Positions 27,951 through 34,732 of a stretch of 64,000 bases of DNA are shown piece by piece. The notes beneath the pieces are model-generated. The model was not told where the DNA came from. It made no database searches and saw nothing but the letters and a program-made list of their open reading frames with translations. Each line of letters opens with the position of its first letter. Position 1 is the stretch's first letter. The position numbers and the translations under genes were made by a program. The stretch covers positions 3,424,001 through 3,488,000 of the forward strand of contig OY969696.1 of the NCBI GenBank assembly GCA_963702005.1, read 5' to 3'. This stretch comes from Candidatus Aminicenantes bacterium (GTDB taxonomy: Bacteria > Acidobacteriota > Aminicenantia > Aminicenantales > JAFGBC01).

Positions 27951-30026
27951 CTAAAATACCCGCTTCCAAATGCCGCCGAACCGGGTCCCGGCATAGAGGG
28001 TCCGGCTCGCCGCGTCGATTTCCAGCCACTGGGTGTTATAGACGGTCAGGCCACCGCTGAACCACGACCAGGTCAGGCCGCGGTCTTGGCTGTATTGGAT
28101 CCCCGAAGGGTCCCCTACAAAGACTTCTTTGGGGTTATTTTTATTAATAGCGATGGCCTCCGCATCCCAGAAGTCTCCGGTCTTCGCCCAGCTCGCTCCG
28201 CCGTTCCCGCTCCGAAATACGCCGTCCCAGGTCCCGACGTAGACGATGTTCGTGTTCACGGGGTCGATAACGATAGTCAAGGGGTGAGCCTGAGTCGGCA
28301 CGGCGAGCGCTGCCCAGCTCGCGCCGCCGTTCGTGCTCTTGTAACAGACGGGGATATCAGCCGCGGTTTGGCCCGTGACATAGAGAATATTTCCGTTCTT
28401 GGGGTCGACGGCCGCCGCCGTGGCGACGCTGTCGTCATCGTTCCGGATCTTGATGCTCGTCCAGCTCGCGCCGCCGTTTTTGCTGACATGGAGCCCCATG
28501 TACTTCGGGCCGGCGTCGACGCCGCCCACCTGTCCGGCGGCTACGACGGTGTTAGGGTCGGCGGGGCTCAGCGCGAGATTTTCGCAGTTGTGGTGAAGAA
28601 TGTTCTTGAAGGATACGCCGCGGTCCGCCGACTTGTAGACCTCGTCGGGGCCGCTGCTCCCGGCCAGGACGTAGACCGTCTTGGGATTCGTGGGATGGAC
28701 GGCGAAGCGGATGACCTCGTCCGAGAGGTAGAAATCCGGGCCCTTCGTCCAGTTCGCGCCGCCGTCACCGGACTTGAAGATTCCGTAGGCGTTCGCCGCC
28801 GCGTATATATTCAGCGGCGCCGAGGGCGCGAGCCCGAAGGCAGGAACATCCGTCGCCCGGATCCCGGCATGGCTCGACTTCCAGGAGACGCCCGCGTTCG
28901 TGCTTTGAAAAATCCCAGCCGAGGTGGCGGCATGGACCCGCGGCCCCCGGGCCAGGATCCTGAGGCCCTTCCCGTAATATCCGCTGCCGTAAAGCTTCCA
29001 GGTCTTTCCCCCGTCCGCGCTCTTGTAACAGCCCTTGTCAGTCGCCGTGGAGTTCAGGTTCCCGGCGTAAATGATGTTGGAGTTGGAGGCGTCGATGGCC
29101 ACGGTGTTGGCAGAGAAGTCGCTGGACGGCGAAACCTGCGCGCTCCAGGACGATCCGGCGTCGCTCGTCCGAGCTACGCCGTACTGATGGGCGACATAGG
29201 CCTTGTTCGCGTCCTTGGAGTCGAGCGCCAGTCCGAAGAGTTGACCGCCGCCGTTCTCGGGGTTGAAGACCGCGGCGGAGGTAACGTCCTTCCAGTCCCG
29301 GCCGCCGTTGGTCGAGACGAAGACGCGGGGAATCCAGACGTACGAGCCGGTCTTGCTGAAATAGCCGCAGAGAAAGACAACGTCCGGATTCTGCGGGGAG
29401 AAGGCGACGTCGCAGACGATACCTCTATATGAGGAGGCTTCGAACTTCTGGACAGCCCATGTTTTGCCGCCGTCGGCGGATTTGATGAGGGCCATACAGG
29501 TGCTATAGGAACCGGAGCTTTTGGCATACGTTCCTGAGGCGATCAGGATTTTCGAGTTCGTGAGCTTCACGGCAAGCCGGCCCTGGTTCACATTAAATCC
29601 TTTGGGGAAATCTATTTCGCTGAATGTCGCGCCCCGGTCCGTGGATTTGAAGAAATGCCAGGCCCCTATGACGTAGACCGTATTCGAGTCCAGAGGGTCC
29701 AGGACGATGTCATAGAGGTAGTCTGTCAGGAGAGCGGTTCGAGTCCAGGACTGGCCGTTGTTTGTGGAGCGAAAAACCTGGCCCGGGTAGCCCATGGCCA
29801 CGGCATAGAGCTCTTTGGCCGACTTGGAATTCCGCGTTAGGCCCTTGATCTCGCCGCCGTAGGGACCGATTGCGGTCCAGGTGCCGGCGTCTTCACGCAC
29901 CGCGACGGCCGGGGCCGTTACCTGTGCGCTCCATGCCTGAGCCGGACCGGGCCAGGGGCCGATAAACGCGGCTGCCAAAACCAGAGCCGGCACCAAGGCT
30001 AAAAGCGAAACGATGTTTTTTTTCAC
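27951..30026 (-). CDS. Secreted BNR/Asp-box beta-propeller protein (Ser-type paralog of 30954-32934)
   Basis: GTG start with GAGGAGG, signal peptide, IGPYGG, many SxDGGxxW repeats. Confidence 0.85.
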   Translation of the reverse strand: MKKNIVSLLALVPALVLAAAFIGPWPGPAQAWSAQVTAPAVAVREDAGTWTAIGPYGGEIKGLTRNSKSAKELYAVAMGYPGQVFRSTNNGQSWTRTALLTDYLYDIVLDPLDSNTVYVIGAWHFFKSTDRGATFSEIDFPKGFNVNQGRLAVKLTNSKILIASGTYAKSSGSYSTCMALIKSADGGKTWAVQKFEASSYRGIVCDVAFSPQNPDVVFLCGYFSKTGSYVWIPRVFVSTNGGRDWKDVTSAAVFNPENGGGQLFGLALDSKDANKAYVAHQYGVARTSDAGSSWSAQVSPSSDFSANTVAIDASNSNIIYAGNLNSTATDKGCYKSADGGKTWKLYGSGYYGKGLRILARGPRVHAATSAGIFQSTNAGVSWKSSHAGIRATDVPAFGLAPSAPLNIYAAANAYGIFKSGDGGANWTKGPDFYLSDEVIRFAVHPTNPKTVYVLAGSSGPDEVYKSADRGVSFKNILHHNCENLALSPADPNTVVAAGQVGGVDAGPKYMGLHVSKNGGASWTSIKIRNDDDSVATAAAVDPKNGNILYVTGQTAADIPVCYKSTNGGASWAALAVPTQAHPLTIVIDPVNTNIVYVGTWDGVFRSGNGGASWAKTGDFWDAEAIAINKNNPKEVFVGDPSGIQYSQDRGLTWSWFSGGLTVYNTQWLEIDAASRTLYAGTRFGGIWKRVF

Positions 30027-30250
30027 GATGCCCTCCTCAAATGACGAGAGTCCCCTCGTCCAATCAGTCGAATAGTTCTTGGACTGTGTTGAATAATAAA
30101 GGGCAGGGCCGCCCGCTGTCAATCTATCCATGAACTTAGTCGGTCAATTTGTTTTGGGCTTGCGCTATGATAGAATGGATAAGGTTGACGGCAAGGGTGG
30201 AATTGAGATACGTTCGTGACAAAGGAAGGACTGAGGGCTGAGGCAGACCG

Positions 30251-30953: not shown

Positions 30954-32934
30954 ATGAAAAGGCTGTCGACGTCGGCGCTGATCGCGCTGTGCGCGATCGT
31001 CGGAACGCTTGCGGCCGGACCGCTCCGGATGACTCTGCCGAAAGCCCCGCTTGCTTGGAGCGAGCTGGGACCTTCGGGCGGCGATATCCGGGGGATCGCT
31101 TTCAACCCCCTCAATCCAAAGGAACTCTGGGCCGTCTCGAAAAGCGGCCAGGTCTTTAAAACCGCCGATTCTGGAAAGACCTGGATGCGGACGGCATTCC
31201 TGGCGGACGAGCTTTTCGATATCGCCGTCGCGCCGAGCCGCCCTTCCGTCCTTTTCGCGCTCGGCACGGCCGCCCTGTTTCGGTCGGCGGACGGAGGGCG
31301 GACTTGGACGAAGCGCCCCCTTCCGTCCGGTGGTCACGGCGATGAGGGCCGTTCTGGCGGTCAATCCCAAGGCGCCTGACACCGTCTTCGCCGCGGGCAA
31401 CATCCGTTCCGGAAGCTCGAAATGGATGGCCGTCTTCAAGACGACGAACGGCGGTCAATCCTGGACGGCGACGAAGCTGGCCGCGACCTCCCATGATGGA
31501 ACCGCCCGCAGCGTGGCGGTCGATCCCATCAACACATCCACCGTCTTTGTCTGCGGCGGCTATGAGGACACCAAAAAGTATTACATTTTCAAGAGCGTGG
31601 ACTCCGGAAAGACCTGGCGTGACTTTACGGGCACGGTCCAGGGAGCCCCTTACGAGCTCATCGTCGACCCGGCCGACTCGGCTAAAGTCTATGTCACGAC
31701 GACCAGTCGCTTTTTCCAAAGCCATGACGGAGGCAAGACCTGGCAGGACAGCGGCGGGGACGGCTTCGGCAGCACAATGGGATTGAGCGCGACCAGCCCC
31801 CGCGTCCTGTTTACCTGCTTTGACACCGGCTGGGTCTACAAGAGTCTTGACGGCTATAACTGGACCCACCTCAAGACCGGATTCTATGGGGAAGCGCGGC
31901 GGTTTGCGATCGTTCCGGGCGAAATTCACCTCGCCTCGATTTCGGGCCTCATCAGGAGCGTCAACGGCGGCGTGACCTGGACGTTGAACCAGGAAGGGAT
32001 CACAGCGACGCGGATCGCGGCGGTCGCCCCGGCGCCGTCATCTCCGAGCCTTCTCTATGCCGTCGCCTATGACCAGGGCGTCGCCAAAAGCGCGGATGCC
32101 GGCCGGACCTGGAAAATCGTCTGGCCTATTTACGGCTGCGAATCCATCCCCAGCTTATCCGTCCATCCTAAAAATTCGAACCGCCTGCTGGTCCTCCTCG
32201 AATCGGGCTGAACGAAATTCTTTTACGTCTTCAGGTCTGAAGACGGCGGGAAAAAATGGGCGAGAGTCCTGGACGAGCTCAGAATCCGGGATCTGGCCAG
32301 GGCGGCGAACGATCCCGAGCACATCGTCTGCTGCGGCGAAACTCTCGACGACCCAAAATATCCAATGGCCTTATTCGCCTCACGGGACGGAGGAAAGACC
32401 TGGACGAAGATCCGCATCACCTCCGTGAGCGGCTGCGGTTACGCCGTCGCCCTGGACCCCAAGGACAGCCGCCTCATCTTTGTCGGCGGCACGAAACAAA
32501 GCAAGGCCGCCCTGTTCAAGACGGACGACGGCGGGTCAAGCTGGCGCGAGATCACGGGGCCGATCAAAGGGACCGTTGCCGAACTGGCTCTCGATCCGCG
32601 GACTTCCCAAACGATCTACGCCGGAACCGCCAACGGCCTGTACCGAAGCCAAAACGGCGGCCAGGCCTGGGAGCGGACGGCCAAGTTCGACGTCCGCGCG
32701 ATCAGGGTCGACCCGAACTCGCCCGACCGGATGTGGGCCGGCGGCGAAGACGGCCTCTTCGTAAGTTCCAACGGAGGGACGACCTGGACGTCGGTCCCCG
32801 GCCTCACGATCAATAAAATCATCTGCCTCGAGTTCGATCCCAAAAAAGGCGTCCTCTACGTTGGGACGGACGGGGGCGGCCTGTCCATGGCGGCCGTTCC
32901 ATCCGCGGCCGACCCGGCCGCACGAGGGCGATGA
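30954..32934 (+). CDS. Secreted BNR/Asp-box beta-propeller protein, putative selenoprotein (about 659 aa; Sec at 32209-32211; one +1 frameshift near 31352)
   Basis: AAGGAGG RBS, signal peptide, Asp-box repeats. The three track ORFs join into one protein collinear with the 27951-30026 paralog. In-frame TGA is followed by a SECIS-like hairpin. Confidence 0.75.
32218..32252 (+). promoter_or_regulatory. Putative bacterial SECIS element
   Basis: CGTCTTCAG-GT-CTGAAGACG perfect inverted repeat (32226-32245) starting 14 nt after the UGA. Apex CAGGTCTG as in the E. coli fdhF SECIS. Wobble-rich lower stem TTCTT/GGGAA. Confidence 0.75.
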
Positions 32935-32959: not shown

Positions 32960-34732
32960 ATGAAGAAGTTTTTTAAGAATCGTTCGCTTCTCGTCGTCGG
33001 GGCTCTTATCCTGGGACTATTCCTCGGCCTCGGAAACTGCAAAATCTCGCTCGGCCCCGCACCGGCCCTTCCCCACCCCAGCCCCCATCAGGCCTATTTG
33101 AAAGCGCTGACGTCCATCCCGCCCCGAAACTCCGGCGGCCTATGGCCTTTTTACAAGGACGAATTCGGGCCCGCCCTCCCCGACCGGACCGAGTCGGAGA
33201 TCGACCAGATGGCGGACAGGGCCAAGCGGCTCAAGGAGGCCGGGTCCCAGTACATCGGGCTCTGGATTCCCTGGGGCGAGGTCGAGCCGGAGCCGGGCCG
33301 GTTCGAGTTCGGGAAATTCGAGCGGCTCTTTGCCGCGGCGGTCGCGACGGGCCAGAAGCTCGAGATCAACCTGGCCAGCTCGATGTACCCAGCCTGGTTC
33401 TACGAATCGGCCCTCCGGCCCGATTCCGGCGCGAATATGCTCTGGTTCTGGAACGATGCCGGTCCCGTTCCCGGCGCGGCCCCGGAGATAGCCCTCGGGA
33501 CGCATCATCAATACCAGCCGAGACGCGTCCAGTCCCCGCCCCTAAGTCTCTGGGCGCCGCCGGAGGTCAAGGCTTACCTTAAAAGGTTCGTCGACCGGGC
33601 CTTCGATGACCTGCTCGATAAATGGGCGCCGGCGATCCTCTACGTTCAGTTCAGCCTGGGACGCCTCAACGAGCCGACCTACCCGGACCGTGAGCACTTC
33701 TGGTGCTACGACCGCAGCGCCGTCGCGGATTTCAGGGCCCGGATGGAGGCGAAGTACGGGACGATCGAGCATCTGAACGAAGCCTGGAGGACGAATCATC
33801 CCGATTTCTCCACGATCGGACCGCCCGTCCCTCCCTTCAAAGGCGTCAACCCCATCCACCGCATGGAATTCTTCAACTGGTACCGGGACTCGAAACGGCG
33901 CTGGGTCCTCGAGGCAACCGGCTGGATCCAGTCCCGGCTGAAGCCGTGGCAGCGGAACCTTGTCTATGTGGCGGGCGGTTCGGGCGACGTCGACCTCGCC
34001 GAACAAGGACAAACCTATCTCGAGCAAGGCCCCGGCCTGGATTGGACCGATTGGACCCTCGCCCCCGCCGTCAAGGACACGATCCGGGCCATGGAGGATA
34101 ATTTCTGGATCGTAAGGAAGGCCAAGGAATTCGGCTGGGCCCTGCAGTACGCGGGTGTGGCGGGGTTGAGCGAAGCGGAGGAGTTGGCCCTCTGCAAACA
34201 TAATCCGGTCTGCCGCGAGGTCCCCCGCTACGCCGAGTCGATCGGCTTCACGGGCCCCATCTACGCCCAGATCCCATTCCTGAGGAAGGACTTCCGGCAG
34301 CCCGAGTTCGTCGCCGAGCAGATCTATACCTACGACGCGGGCTACCACGGCCTCCACTGGACGAACGACGAGAACTTGTTCGGTCCCCAGGACGGGGCCC
34401 GCCTGCAGTCTCTCGAGCGGGCCTGGCGCAACATCCAGCTCTATTTCGGGACGGACGCCCAACCTCCGGCCATCCTCGCGGTCCAGGAGCAGGTCTCGGG
34501 CCGGACGGCCGAGGTCAGGTGGACGACGGACGAGCCGAGCGAAGGATTCGTCCTCTACGGCCTGTCGCCGAGCCGGCTCAACCGGCTGTCGTCCCTCGAC
34601 GCCCTCGCCGCCGATCACTCCATTTCGCTCGAGGGGCTGGCCGAGAACGCGACCTACTATTACTCGGTCTTTGCAACGGACGCCTTCGGAAACTCCTCGG
34701 TGACCCCCGTCAAGTCCTTCGCCGTCCGTTGA
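32960..34732 (+). CDS. Secreted glycoside hydrolase-like TIM-barrel protein (GH42/GH14-like) with C-terminal FN3-like domain
   Basis: IPWGEVEPEPGRFEF, YPAW, KYGTIEHLNEAW; C-terminal WTTDEPS...YG...HSISLEGL...TYYY. Confidence 0.65.
   Translation: MKKFFKNRSLLVVGALILGLFLGLGNCKISLGPAPALPHPSPHQAYLKALTSIPPRNSGGLWPFYKDEFGPALPDRTESEIDQMADRAKRLKEAGSQYIGLWIPWGEVEPEPGRFEFGKFERLFAAAVATGQKLEINLASSMYPAWFYESALRPDSGANMLWFWNDAGPVPGAAPEIALGTHHQYQPRRVQSPPLSLWAPPEVKAYLKRFVDRAFDDLLDKWAPAILYVQFSLGRLNEPTYPDREHFWCYDRSAVADFRARMEAKYGTIEHLNEAWRTNHPDFSTIGPPVPPFKGVNPIHRMEFFNWYRDSKRRWVLEATGWIQSRLKPWQRNLVYVAGGSGDVDLAEQGQTYLEQGPGLDWTDWTLAPAVKDTIRAMEDNFWIVRKAKEFGWALQYAGVAGLSEAEELALCKHNPVCREVPRYAESIGFTGPIYAQIPFLRKDFRQPEFVAEQIYTYDAGYHGLHWTNDENLFGPQDGARLQSLERAWRNIQLYFGTDAQPPAILAVQEQVSGRTAEVRWTTDEPSEGFVLYGLSPSRLNRLSSLDALAADHSISLEGLAENATYYYSVFATDAFGNSSVTPVKSFAVR

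Follow-up and report, generated by a model that had tools for sequence, protein, structure and literature searches.

Does the TGA that interrupts a gene for a secreted propeller protein mark its end, its decay or the place of a selenocysteine (Sec)? This question is raised by a gene on the plus strand of a 64,000-nucleotide stretch of DNA (hereafter the window; positions 3,424,001 to 3,488,000 of contig OY969696.1) from Candidatus Aminicenantes bacterium. The window corresponds to C1:3424001-3488000 of the source genome, G000, which is one single contig of 4.31 Mb, and the source lineage is an uncultured wetland bacterium of the Aminicenantes. A preliminary description of the window had proposed that the in-frame TGA at 32209-32211 encodes Sec in an exported BNR/Asp-box beta-propeller protein, and that a hairpin just 3' of it resembles a selenocysteine insertion sequence (SECIS). 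We arrive at the same reading and give it a probability of roughly 0.85: the target gene probably is a member of an uncatalogued family of secreted tandem-propeller selenoproteins, in which an in-frame UGA is read as Sec. The features of the gene are the following:

30954..31352, plus strand: 5' part of the gene in frame 1, with the start codon, a signal-peptide-like N-terminus (MKRLSTSALIALCAIVGTLAAGP...) and the first two Asp-box blades (from open reading frame (ORF) 30954-31379).
31351..31353, plus strand: frameshift site with one extra T, GTT where relatives show GT or G-G (from the ortholog and metagenome contigs).
31354..32208, plus strand: middle part of the gene in frame 2, blades about 3-8, with the codon ahead of the TGA as its last (from the translation and ORF 31051-32211).
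32137..32139, plus strand: Cys codon TGC, 24 codons 5' of the TGA, C-x23-U (from the sequence and translation).
32209..32211, plus strand: in-frame TGA, proposed selenocysteine codon, at about residue 419 after correction of the frameshift (from the shared alignment column).
32212..32934, plus strand: 3' part of the gene, blades about 9-14, with the stop TGA at 32932-32934 (from the translation and Pfam BNR/BNR_2 matches).
32226..32245, plus strand: SECIS-like hairpin of 8 bp, stem 32226-32233 / 32238-32245, loop GGUC at 32234-32237 (from RNAfold).

The layout agrees with what had been described before. The TGA is in frame with the ORF at 32365-32934, the 51 codons in between are open and code for the Asp-box VFRSEDGGKKW, and the Cys codon at 32137 is located 24 codons upstream. 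Gene callers had been expected to split such a gene, and the target is indeed listed as three ORFs (30954-31379, 31051-32211 and 32365-32934). The 5' part aligns base for base with an intact ortholog (L024) and gives Pfam Sortilin-Vps10/BNR matches. The target product scores above the cut-off with four Pfam models: PF15902 Sortilin-Vps10 (112.1 bits, cut-off 33), PF13088 (50.6, cut-off 31.4), PSII_BNR (47.2, cut-off 27) and PF02012 (38.8, cut-off 27).

We searched 61 related genomes in six frames with the read-through product, followed by tblastn and alignment. The source genome contains 13 full-length paralogs with exactly one in-frame TGA each, all at one alignment column and within the motif GG-U-G. 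A fragmentary fourteenth copy has a TGA at the same column, which makes 14 loci in a genome of 4.3 Mb. All intact copies start with a signal-peptide-like N-terminus. Twelve more distinct sequences with TGA at the column come from G001, G040, G076, G087 (which has two TGA-bearing copies), G111, G162 and G339. Among these, G040, G076, G087, G111 and G162 span four families of the class, and G339 is a Zixibacteria metagenome-assembled genome. The preliminary description had suggested tabulating this codon among homologs, and the tabulation gives TGA in 26 distinct sequences from 8 genomes and Cys in others, with counts that overstate their statistical weight because related sequences are not independent. 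In all five genomes searched with a profile of the Sec region (G040, G076, G087, G162 and G339), the TGA-bearing gene is the best match. The same-genus ortholog in G001 is an intact gene for 662 residues with U422 and C398, and shares 71% protein and 76.7% DNA identity with the target. Sec copies number 14 in G000 and at least five in G001, compared with one or two in G339, G162, G040, G076 and G087, and the propeller family is thus expanded in the source genus. Genome-wide reassignment of TGA was considered as well and rejected, since TGA is the commonest stop codon in G000 and ends 1884 of the 3917 ORFs of at least 300 codons.

The TGA is always accompanied by a hairpin. As previously described, the target hairpin CGTCTTCAG-GT-CTGAAGACG begins 14 nt past the TGA, at 32226-32245, which is seen both in the sequence and with RNAfold. 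It overlaps the codons for V-F-R-S-E-D-G of the Asp-box (32227-32247) and has a minimum free energy (MFE) of -11 kcal/mol for a 42-nt piece. Throughout the family, the sequence after every TGA is (R)UCU(W)CAGGUCUG(W)AGA(Y), which codes for (V/I)(Y/F)RS(V/E)D of one Asp-box. Written in codons, the hairpin is spelled RUC UWC AGG UCU GWA GAY G, or (V/I)-(Y/F)-R-S-(V/E)-D-G in protein. The distance from the UGA to the loop is 19, 22 or 28 nt in the family, and 22 nt in the target as in several other copies.

We compared these hairpins to the remaining repeats of the same proteins, using 133 Asp-box-like motifs from 19 paralogous genes, 13 of them TGA-adjacent and 120 not. Seven of seven positions pair in 12 of the 13 TGA-adjacent boxes and six of seven in the other one. 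The hairpin is absent from the 120 other boxes, none of which pairs at seven of seven positions and only one at six. The Arg-Ser codon pair AGG-TCT is found in all 11 of 11 Sec-adjacent boxes and never in other boxes, where Arg-Ser is mostly encoded by CGG/CGC with AGC or TCC. The earlier remark that these codons are unusual for this DNA is borne out by the long ORFs of the genome, in which AGG makes up 8.2% of Arg and TCT 7.2% of Ser codons. In non-Sec paralogs only 2-5 of 7 positions of the equivalent box are paired. The genome as a whole contains 26 perfect 7-bp hairpins with a GGTC, GTTC or GGTT loop; 12 of them are of the RTCTWCA type, and all 12 are located 15-18 nt past a TGA in propeller genes.

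Conservation and covariation of the hairpin, which the preliminary description had named as checks, were both found. In a covariation alignment of the 26 sequences, 98.1% of cells are paired, compared with 15-52% in slid registers, and the covariation score was reached by none of 500 shuffles. Compensatory changes turn a G-C into an A-U pair in seven sequences and an A-U into a U-A pair in two, the target and its ortholog; the second change comes with two replacements in the protein, Y to F and V to E. Target and ortholog share 24 identical bases across the hairpin despite their overall identity of 76.7%. The hairpin is retained in G076 though the Asp-box there has degenerated to VDNAKNW, and the Zixibacteria gene, at a protein identity of about 30%, has an identical hairpin. 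Two residues of the box that the hairpin encodes, Tyr and Val, show 95% conservation among Sec forms, versus 50% and 22%, respectively, in forms with neither Sec nor Cys, and this conservation appears to be driven by the RNA.

Outside the family the pattern is rare. A scan of 596 Gb of genomes with a degenerate pattern returned 29 loci, nine of which have an in-frame TGA 4-7 codons upstream, all in Aminicenantes or Zixibacteria. The remaining loci lack a TGA in this interval; among them L072 is doubtful, with a TGA abutting the hairpin. One fully palindromic (L095) and one near-palindromic (L081) hairpin without TGA were found, both in Bacteroidota-type Asp-box genes. As a negative control, the hairpin is absent from 80 of 80 distant metagenome BNR loci (22-29% identity) found with the Cys form P0018; the metagenome matches were generic BNR genes at this identity, and P0018's own locus was not among them. 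Rfam gave nothing relevant at the hairpin.

The bacterial SECIS (bSECIS) model, as given in the Fig. 2 legend of PMC13188914, has a loop of 3-9 nt, a stem of 4-16 bp, a G in the first two loop positions, a spacing of 16-37 nt and an MFE of at most -7.5 kcal/mol. The target, with 8 bp, GGUC, 22 nt and -11 kcal/mol, lies within these limits. The family hairpin is also consistent with the general rule stated in PMC4605307, a stem of 6-8 bp and a conserved loop G about 20 nt past the UGA. From these comparisons, the hairpin appears to behave as a SECIS, and its significance comes from comparison rather than from folding energy.

A Sec codon needs a decoding machinery, and the preliminary description had pointed out that the window contains no sel genes. 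This is correct, and the sel genes are found elsewhere in the genome. We located selA (C1:765451-766824, 561.7 bits, cut-off 267.9), selD (C1:767020-767940, above cut-off), selB (C1:768099-769995, 288.1 bits including in-frame neighbours, cut-off 242.25) and, with ARAGORN, a tRNA-SeC with anticodon TCA at about C1:770011-770106. The four genes form one block on one strand, about 2.66 Mb from the window on the same contig. The product of selD (C1:766858-768063, plus strand) is extended at its N-terminus by about 45 Cys-rich residues (…HCICNPKDPCPCDLFKRKNVCLCAG…) that precede the AIRS domains, and the gene contains no in-frame TGA. Right after the tRNA-Sec gene, C1:770135-770841 (minus strand) holds two small overlapping ORFs that look toxin-antitoxin-like by eye.

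The propeller family is linked to these genes. The surroundings of the sel operon (756-783 kb; C1:756150-782771, loci L118 and L119) contain five intact and one broken Sec-propeller copies within 26 kb. A secreted DsbD_N-like protein is encoded immediately 5' of selA, and this sel island also encodes three exported proteins of the AhpC-TSA/redoxin type, a Fer4_5 membrane ferredoxin, an OmpW-like outer-membrane beta-barrel and an amine-oxidase-like flavoprotein. The Sec copy is about 5 kb from selA in G162 and about 10 kb in G076. Of the 339 genomes of the class, 106 have selA, among them 7/7 of those with a TGA member; it is present in five other TGA-bearing genomes tested, plus G001 and G040. 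In G002, a genome of the same genus that is 83% complete, selA was not found, and the one homolog examined there has no TGA.

We also scanned the source genome for other selenoprotein genes. Coding potential on both sides of a TGA gave 522 noisy candidates, to which a hairpin filter was applied; the scan is not exhaustive. After filtering, it returned the propeller family and two thioredoxin-like genes (C1:1013349-1015056, plus strand, and 2162572-2164131, minus strand; L120 and L121). The latter encode secreted Thioredoxin_7/Thioredoxin_2 proteins with TPR repeats and have U-G-S-C at the CxxC position, and they likely belong to the known UxxC thiol:disulfide selenoprotein type. Their hairpins have an apex with GGUC at 21-22 nt from the UGA and serve as an internal positive control. 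Propellers account for 14 of the 16 candidate genes in this limited scan, and all 14 propellers and both thioredoxin-TPR candidates have signal peptides. A Sec-type formate dehydrogenase (FDH) was not found in G000: TIGR01553 and TIGR01591 gave no match above cut-off, strong partial matches lack an in-frame TGA, and one weak partial FDH-alpha match with a TGA (C1:2764584-2764823) scores 23.8 bits. The Sec machinery is apparently kept for exported proteins.

We next consider which residues replace Sec in homologs. We searched 1.84 billion representatives with a profile and obtained 220,035 matches, of which we used all 40 single-stretch ones among the best 150. In the 39 that are full-length, the Sec column holds Cys in 7, Ser in 6, Gly, Asn and Thr in 3 each and other residues in 10, and the loop is shorter in 7. 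The fortieth, P0149, ends at ...LAGG, exactly before the column, as a TGA gene cut by a gene caller would. A genuine Cys codon occupies the column in paralog 2127220 of the source genome. The Cys form P0013 was not found in four related genomes, where the best match is 60% identical. A quick maximum-likelihood tree mixes the Sec forms with Cys and other forms, and three Sec/Cys sister groupings in it have a support of 100. Because the hairpin sequence is the same throughout, we infer that Sec would be ancestral in the family and would have been lost repeatedly, to Cys, to Ser or by deletion of the loop.

Among the alternatives, the one that survives best is that the target copy is dead, with frameshift and TGA both resulting from decay and no recoding taking place. 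The preliminary description had noted that one base near 31352 must be removed, and we confirm one surplus base relative to the same-genus ortholog, CCGTTCTGG versus CCG-GCTGG. The extra T at 31352/31353 is thus missing from the G001 ortholog, and it is missing from two related metagenome contigs as well. A 2957-nt contig in run X1 has one base fewer than the target ('31352 left out 1'), and the loose end of a contig in run X2 reads ...GGGCCG ahead of 31353, which corresponds to a single T; both contigs come from one study and represent relatives at about 93-97% identity, not the target strain. Also in favour of a dead copy, the target is split into three ORFs, two other paralogs are frame-broken, and loss would be cheap with 13 other copies remaining. 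However, the TGA is found at the same column, always with the hairpin, in the 26 sequences from 8 genomes, and the intact ortholog keeps it together with the identical hairpin bases. The +1 frameshift is located about 285 codons 5' of the UGA, the rest of the reading frame is open throughout, and the extra base could be an error of the single-contig assembly. We therefore regard a dead copy without recoding as improbable. The broken paralog at C1:756150-758184 keeps TGA and hairpin, and the frame-broken paralogs may be copies in decay or may reflect assembly indel errors; for the target copy itself, a recent pseudogene and a mis-assembly stand at near even odds. Programmed frameshifting at 31352 was rejected, since no shift occurs there in orthologs.

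In a second alternative the UGA is a true stop. A truncated 9-blade protein would then be made together with a separately initiated C-terminal piece, and the hairpin would have another role, for instance in pausing or mRNA stability. The pieces predicted by gene callers match this arrangement, P0149 ends before the column, and an ATG is available at 32365 in the target. Against it, the 51 codons from the TGA to this ATG are open and code for a conserved Asp-box blade, full-length Cys homologs bridge the site, and the C-terminal blades would be needed for propeller closure, as is generally known for this fold. In addition, the hairpin agrees with the bSECIS model and is similar to the SECIS elements of the two UxxC thioredoxin-fold genes in the genome, and TGA members are seen only in selA-bearing genomes, which together make a true stop very improbable. 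That the hairpin carries no signal, and arose as a side effect of coding for an Asp-box or through recent gene conversion, can be dismissed almost entirely: the peptide Y-R-S-V-D-G is able to spell a palindrome, and the 596-Gb collection contains the TGA-less hairpins L095 and L081, but none of the 120 other Asp-boxes forms the hairpin or uses AGG-TCT, the hairpin persists in the degenerated box of G076 and in the distant Zixibacteria gene, the compensatory change alters two amino acids together, and gene conversion is excluded because the paralogs are only 29-36% identical in protein.

Several observations weigh against the selenoprotein reading. The target copy is frame-broken in the assembly, and so are two further paralogs in the genome, C1:756150-758184 (minus strand) and 1977010-1978567 (plus strand). 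The related TGA and hairpin sequences are not independent. The folding energy is unexceptional relative to shuffles (z -1.68 for 42 nt, z -1.56 for 71 nt), the covariation is carried by two pairs because the hairpin varies little, and the stem has no bulged U. The seven Cys forms from the database are seen as protein only, and at the column the majority of the non-Sec homologs (31 of 39) show no Cys and no conserved residue, so that the basic function of the fold does not depend on the residue there. The upstream Cys is missing in 4 of the 13 Sec copies of G000, and the tree, from a quick search that did not run to completion, leaves many forks open. Redoxin genes are found in the sel island only and not beside the dispersed paralogs whose neighbourhoods were checked. 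Among the public sequencing runs searched, none was an RNA run, and in seven DNA runs from wetland or peat at most 0.28 of the sampled words occurred.

On balance, the selenoprotein reading of the preliminary description is supported. The routes it had named for refuting this reading, taken here as three tests (a genome without Sec machinery; homologs lacking a conserved TGA or Cys at the column; homologs lacking the hairpin), failed to refute it.

We analyzed how the Sec residue may be placed in the protein. Members of the family are secreted, have about 660-830 residues and contain roughly 14 Asp-box blades. A manual count in the ortholog gives 13-14 blades, with the Sec loop before the ninth box, and two seven-bladed propellers are therefore implied. 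Some members have a C-terminal extension of about 150-170 residues with an SA(T/S)xGGTTxPxPG-like motif and a second conserved module (C1:772368-774833 and 780279-782771; P0009, P0041, P0042, P0052 and P0142 in the database). GH74 enzymes contain two catalytic Asp residues in the cleft between their propellers. By sequence, GH74 xyloglucanases are the nearest solved structures (2CN2, E 1.6e-41), and the next matches in the PDB are sortilin (E 1e-15) and Ycf48 (E 1e-12). In a local alignment whose repeat register is ambiguous, the Sec loop is found opposite the GH74 loop AGMYTNDW. With the same ambiguity of register, the position at which 2CN2 and 2CN3 show D versus A, which we take to be the GH74 catalytic Asp, falls opposite a Gln of paralog 782771, and the family consensus has no acid there. 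Because of this Gln and the missing consensus acid, we did not file the family as GH74 hydrolases, the comparison being inconclusive. The NCBIfam model NF045728 (F510_1955 family glycosylhydrolase) reached 174.7 bits over 5 repeat stretches, below its cut-off of 175.

We propose that the UGA, in the loop that precedes the ninth Asp-box, would be decoded as selenocysteine by SelB, which with Sec-tRNA(Sec) would bind the 8-bp GGUC-loop hairpin 19-28 nt 3' of the UGA. The SECIS would be the coding sequence of the ninth Asp-box itself. The resulting selenol would be located in a variable surface loop, with a Cys 22-23 residues upstream in most members, predicted to be in the preceding loop of the same blade. 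In propellers, the loop that joins strands 2 and 3 emerges on the same face as the loop that leads into strand 1. As the Cys and Sec loops would both be on this face, a Cys-Sec contact is plausible. Sec forms are set apart from the rest at a few columns only: the Sec/Cys column, the preceding Gly, the upstream Cys, and the Tyr and Val of the hairpin box. The upstream Cys is present in 80% of 20 Sec forms versus 16% of the 32 forms that lack both Sec and Cys at the Sec column, and it is this co-occurrence that suggests a pairing of the two residues. Outside the cytoplasm, Cys and Sec may join in a selenenylsulfide with redox activity or act together as a chalcogen ligand pair, and the exported TlpA/redoxin-like and DsbD_N-like proteins of the sel island may service the pair. 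Anoxic wetlands are strongly reducing, and a selenenylsulfide could possibly stay formed, or cycle, in such surroundings. A possible role for the propellers, to which we give somewhat less than an even chance, is to present a Sec-Cys pair that is redox-active or binds a ligand, on a scaffold that binds glycans, with the exported reductases of the island servicing the pair.

We compared the family to known selenoprotein systems. Like canonical bSECIS genes such as E. coli fdhF, its members contain an in-frame UGA with a stem-loop directly 3', in which the G at the start of the loop is about 20 nt on, and like canonical selenoprotein genomes the source genome has selA, selB, selD and tRNA-Sec. 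The apex bound by SelB in fdhF presumably is the same GGUC(UG). A bulged U in the upper stem is important in E. coli fdhF; unlike this element, the family stem consists of 8 uninterrupted bp. The family also differs from fdhF in that its product has another fold and no molybdopterin, and in that its SECIS also serves to encode a structural repeat, the Asp-box. In being secreted, about 700 residues long and built from tandem Asp-box propellers, the family resembles the GH74 xyloglucanases (PDB 2CN2, 6P2N, 4LGN), and a glycoside-hydrolase-like gene is located 3' of the target. Sortilin/Vps10 and Ycf48/HCF136 propellers are related by Pfam and PDB sequence matches, but these have 10 or 7 blades and act in ligand binding or in assembly. 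To our knowledge, no GH74 member contains Sec or a catalytic Cys, and no Sortilin/Vps10 or Ycf48/HCF136 propeller contains Sec.

Exported selenoproteins listed in the catalogue of PMC13188914 (UxxC thiol:disulfide interchange proteins, the TonB-dependent receptor FCYXU, DsbA/DsbG-like proteins) are, like the propellers, extracytoplasmic and have Sec together with Cys. Unlike in the propellers, Sec and Cys are there 1-2 residues apart in a thioredoxin fold or barrel, compared with a spacing of 21-23 residues across two blade loops. The preliminary description knew of no selenoprotein with this fold, and Table 1 of the 2026 catalogue, which covers 119 prokaryotic selenoprotein families, contains no BNR, propeller, sortilin or GH74 entry (PMC13188914). 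Relative to the 119 families of this table, fold and cellular location would be new. The main texts of deep-Sep (PMC12013277) and BSepDB (PMC13326102) do not contain 'BNR', 'propeller' or 'sialidase', and their supplements may list more. No selenoprotein model of NCBIfam release 20 matches the target product. Our literature search returned no paper that joins selenocysteine or selenoproteins with a BNR, Asp-box or beta-propeller fold, and nothing related for Aminicenantes together with selenocysteine.

Two neighbours of the target gene in the window complete its description, the first of which is a paralog:

27951..30131, minus strand: neighbouring paralog, uninterrupted, with Ser at the Sec column and no hairpin (from the ORF list and alignment).

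The preliminary description had used this paralog as an uninterrupted reference. It is real and unbroken; its strand and extent had to be corrected to minus and 27951-30131, and it has Ser at the column. The paralog is divergent from the target, with transcription directed away from the target gene, and its equivalent Asp-box pairs at only 5 of 7 positions. On the other side, 25 nt 3' of the target, 32960-34732 (plus strand) encodes a secreted, glycoside-hydrolase-like protein of 590 residues, with Glyco_hydro_42 and Glyco_hydro_14 matches and a C-terminal fibronectin-like domain.

Taken jointly, the findings allow for a wider, tentative picture that we hold to be less likely than not: the selenoproteome of this lineage may be mostly extracellular, with a selenium island that has a dedicated exported reductase module, and with a new catalytic or cross-linking Sec-Cys device on a GH74-like scaffold in which Sec is ancestral. 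If the selenoprotein reading is true, a secreted, glycosidase-like tandem propeller with one Sec would represent a fold and a location without counterpart among the catalogued families. The 14-copy expansion would alter the selenoproteome as estimated for a lineage widespread in sediments and wetlands, whose family genes are annotated as fragments or pseudogenes because standard gene callers split every member. A SECIS within a protein repeat would provide a clean natural example of dual coding, and the repeated exchanges between Sec and Cys would offer a system in which to ask what selenium buys an extracellular protein.

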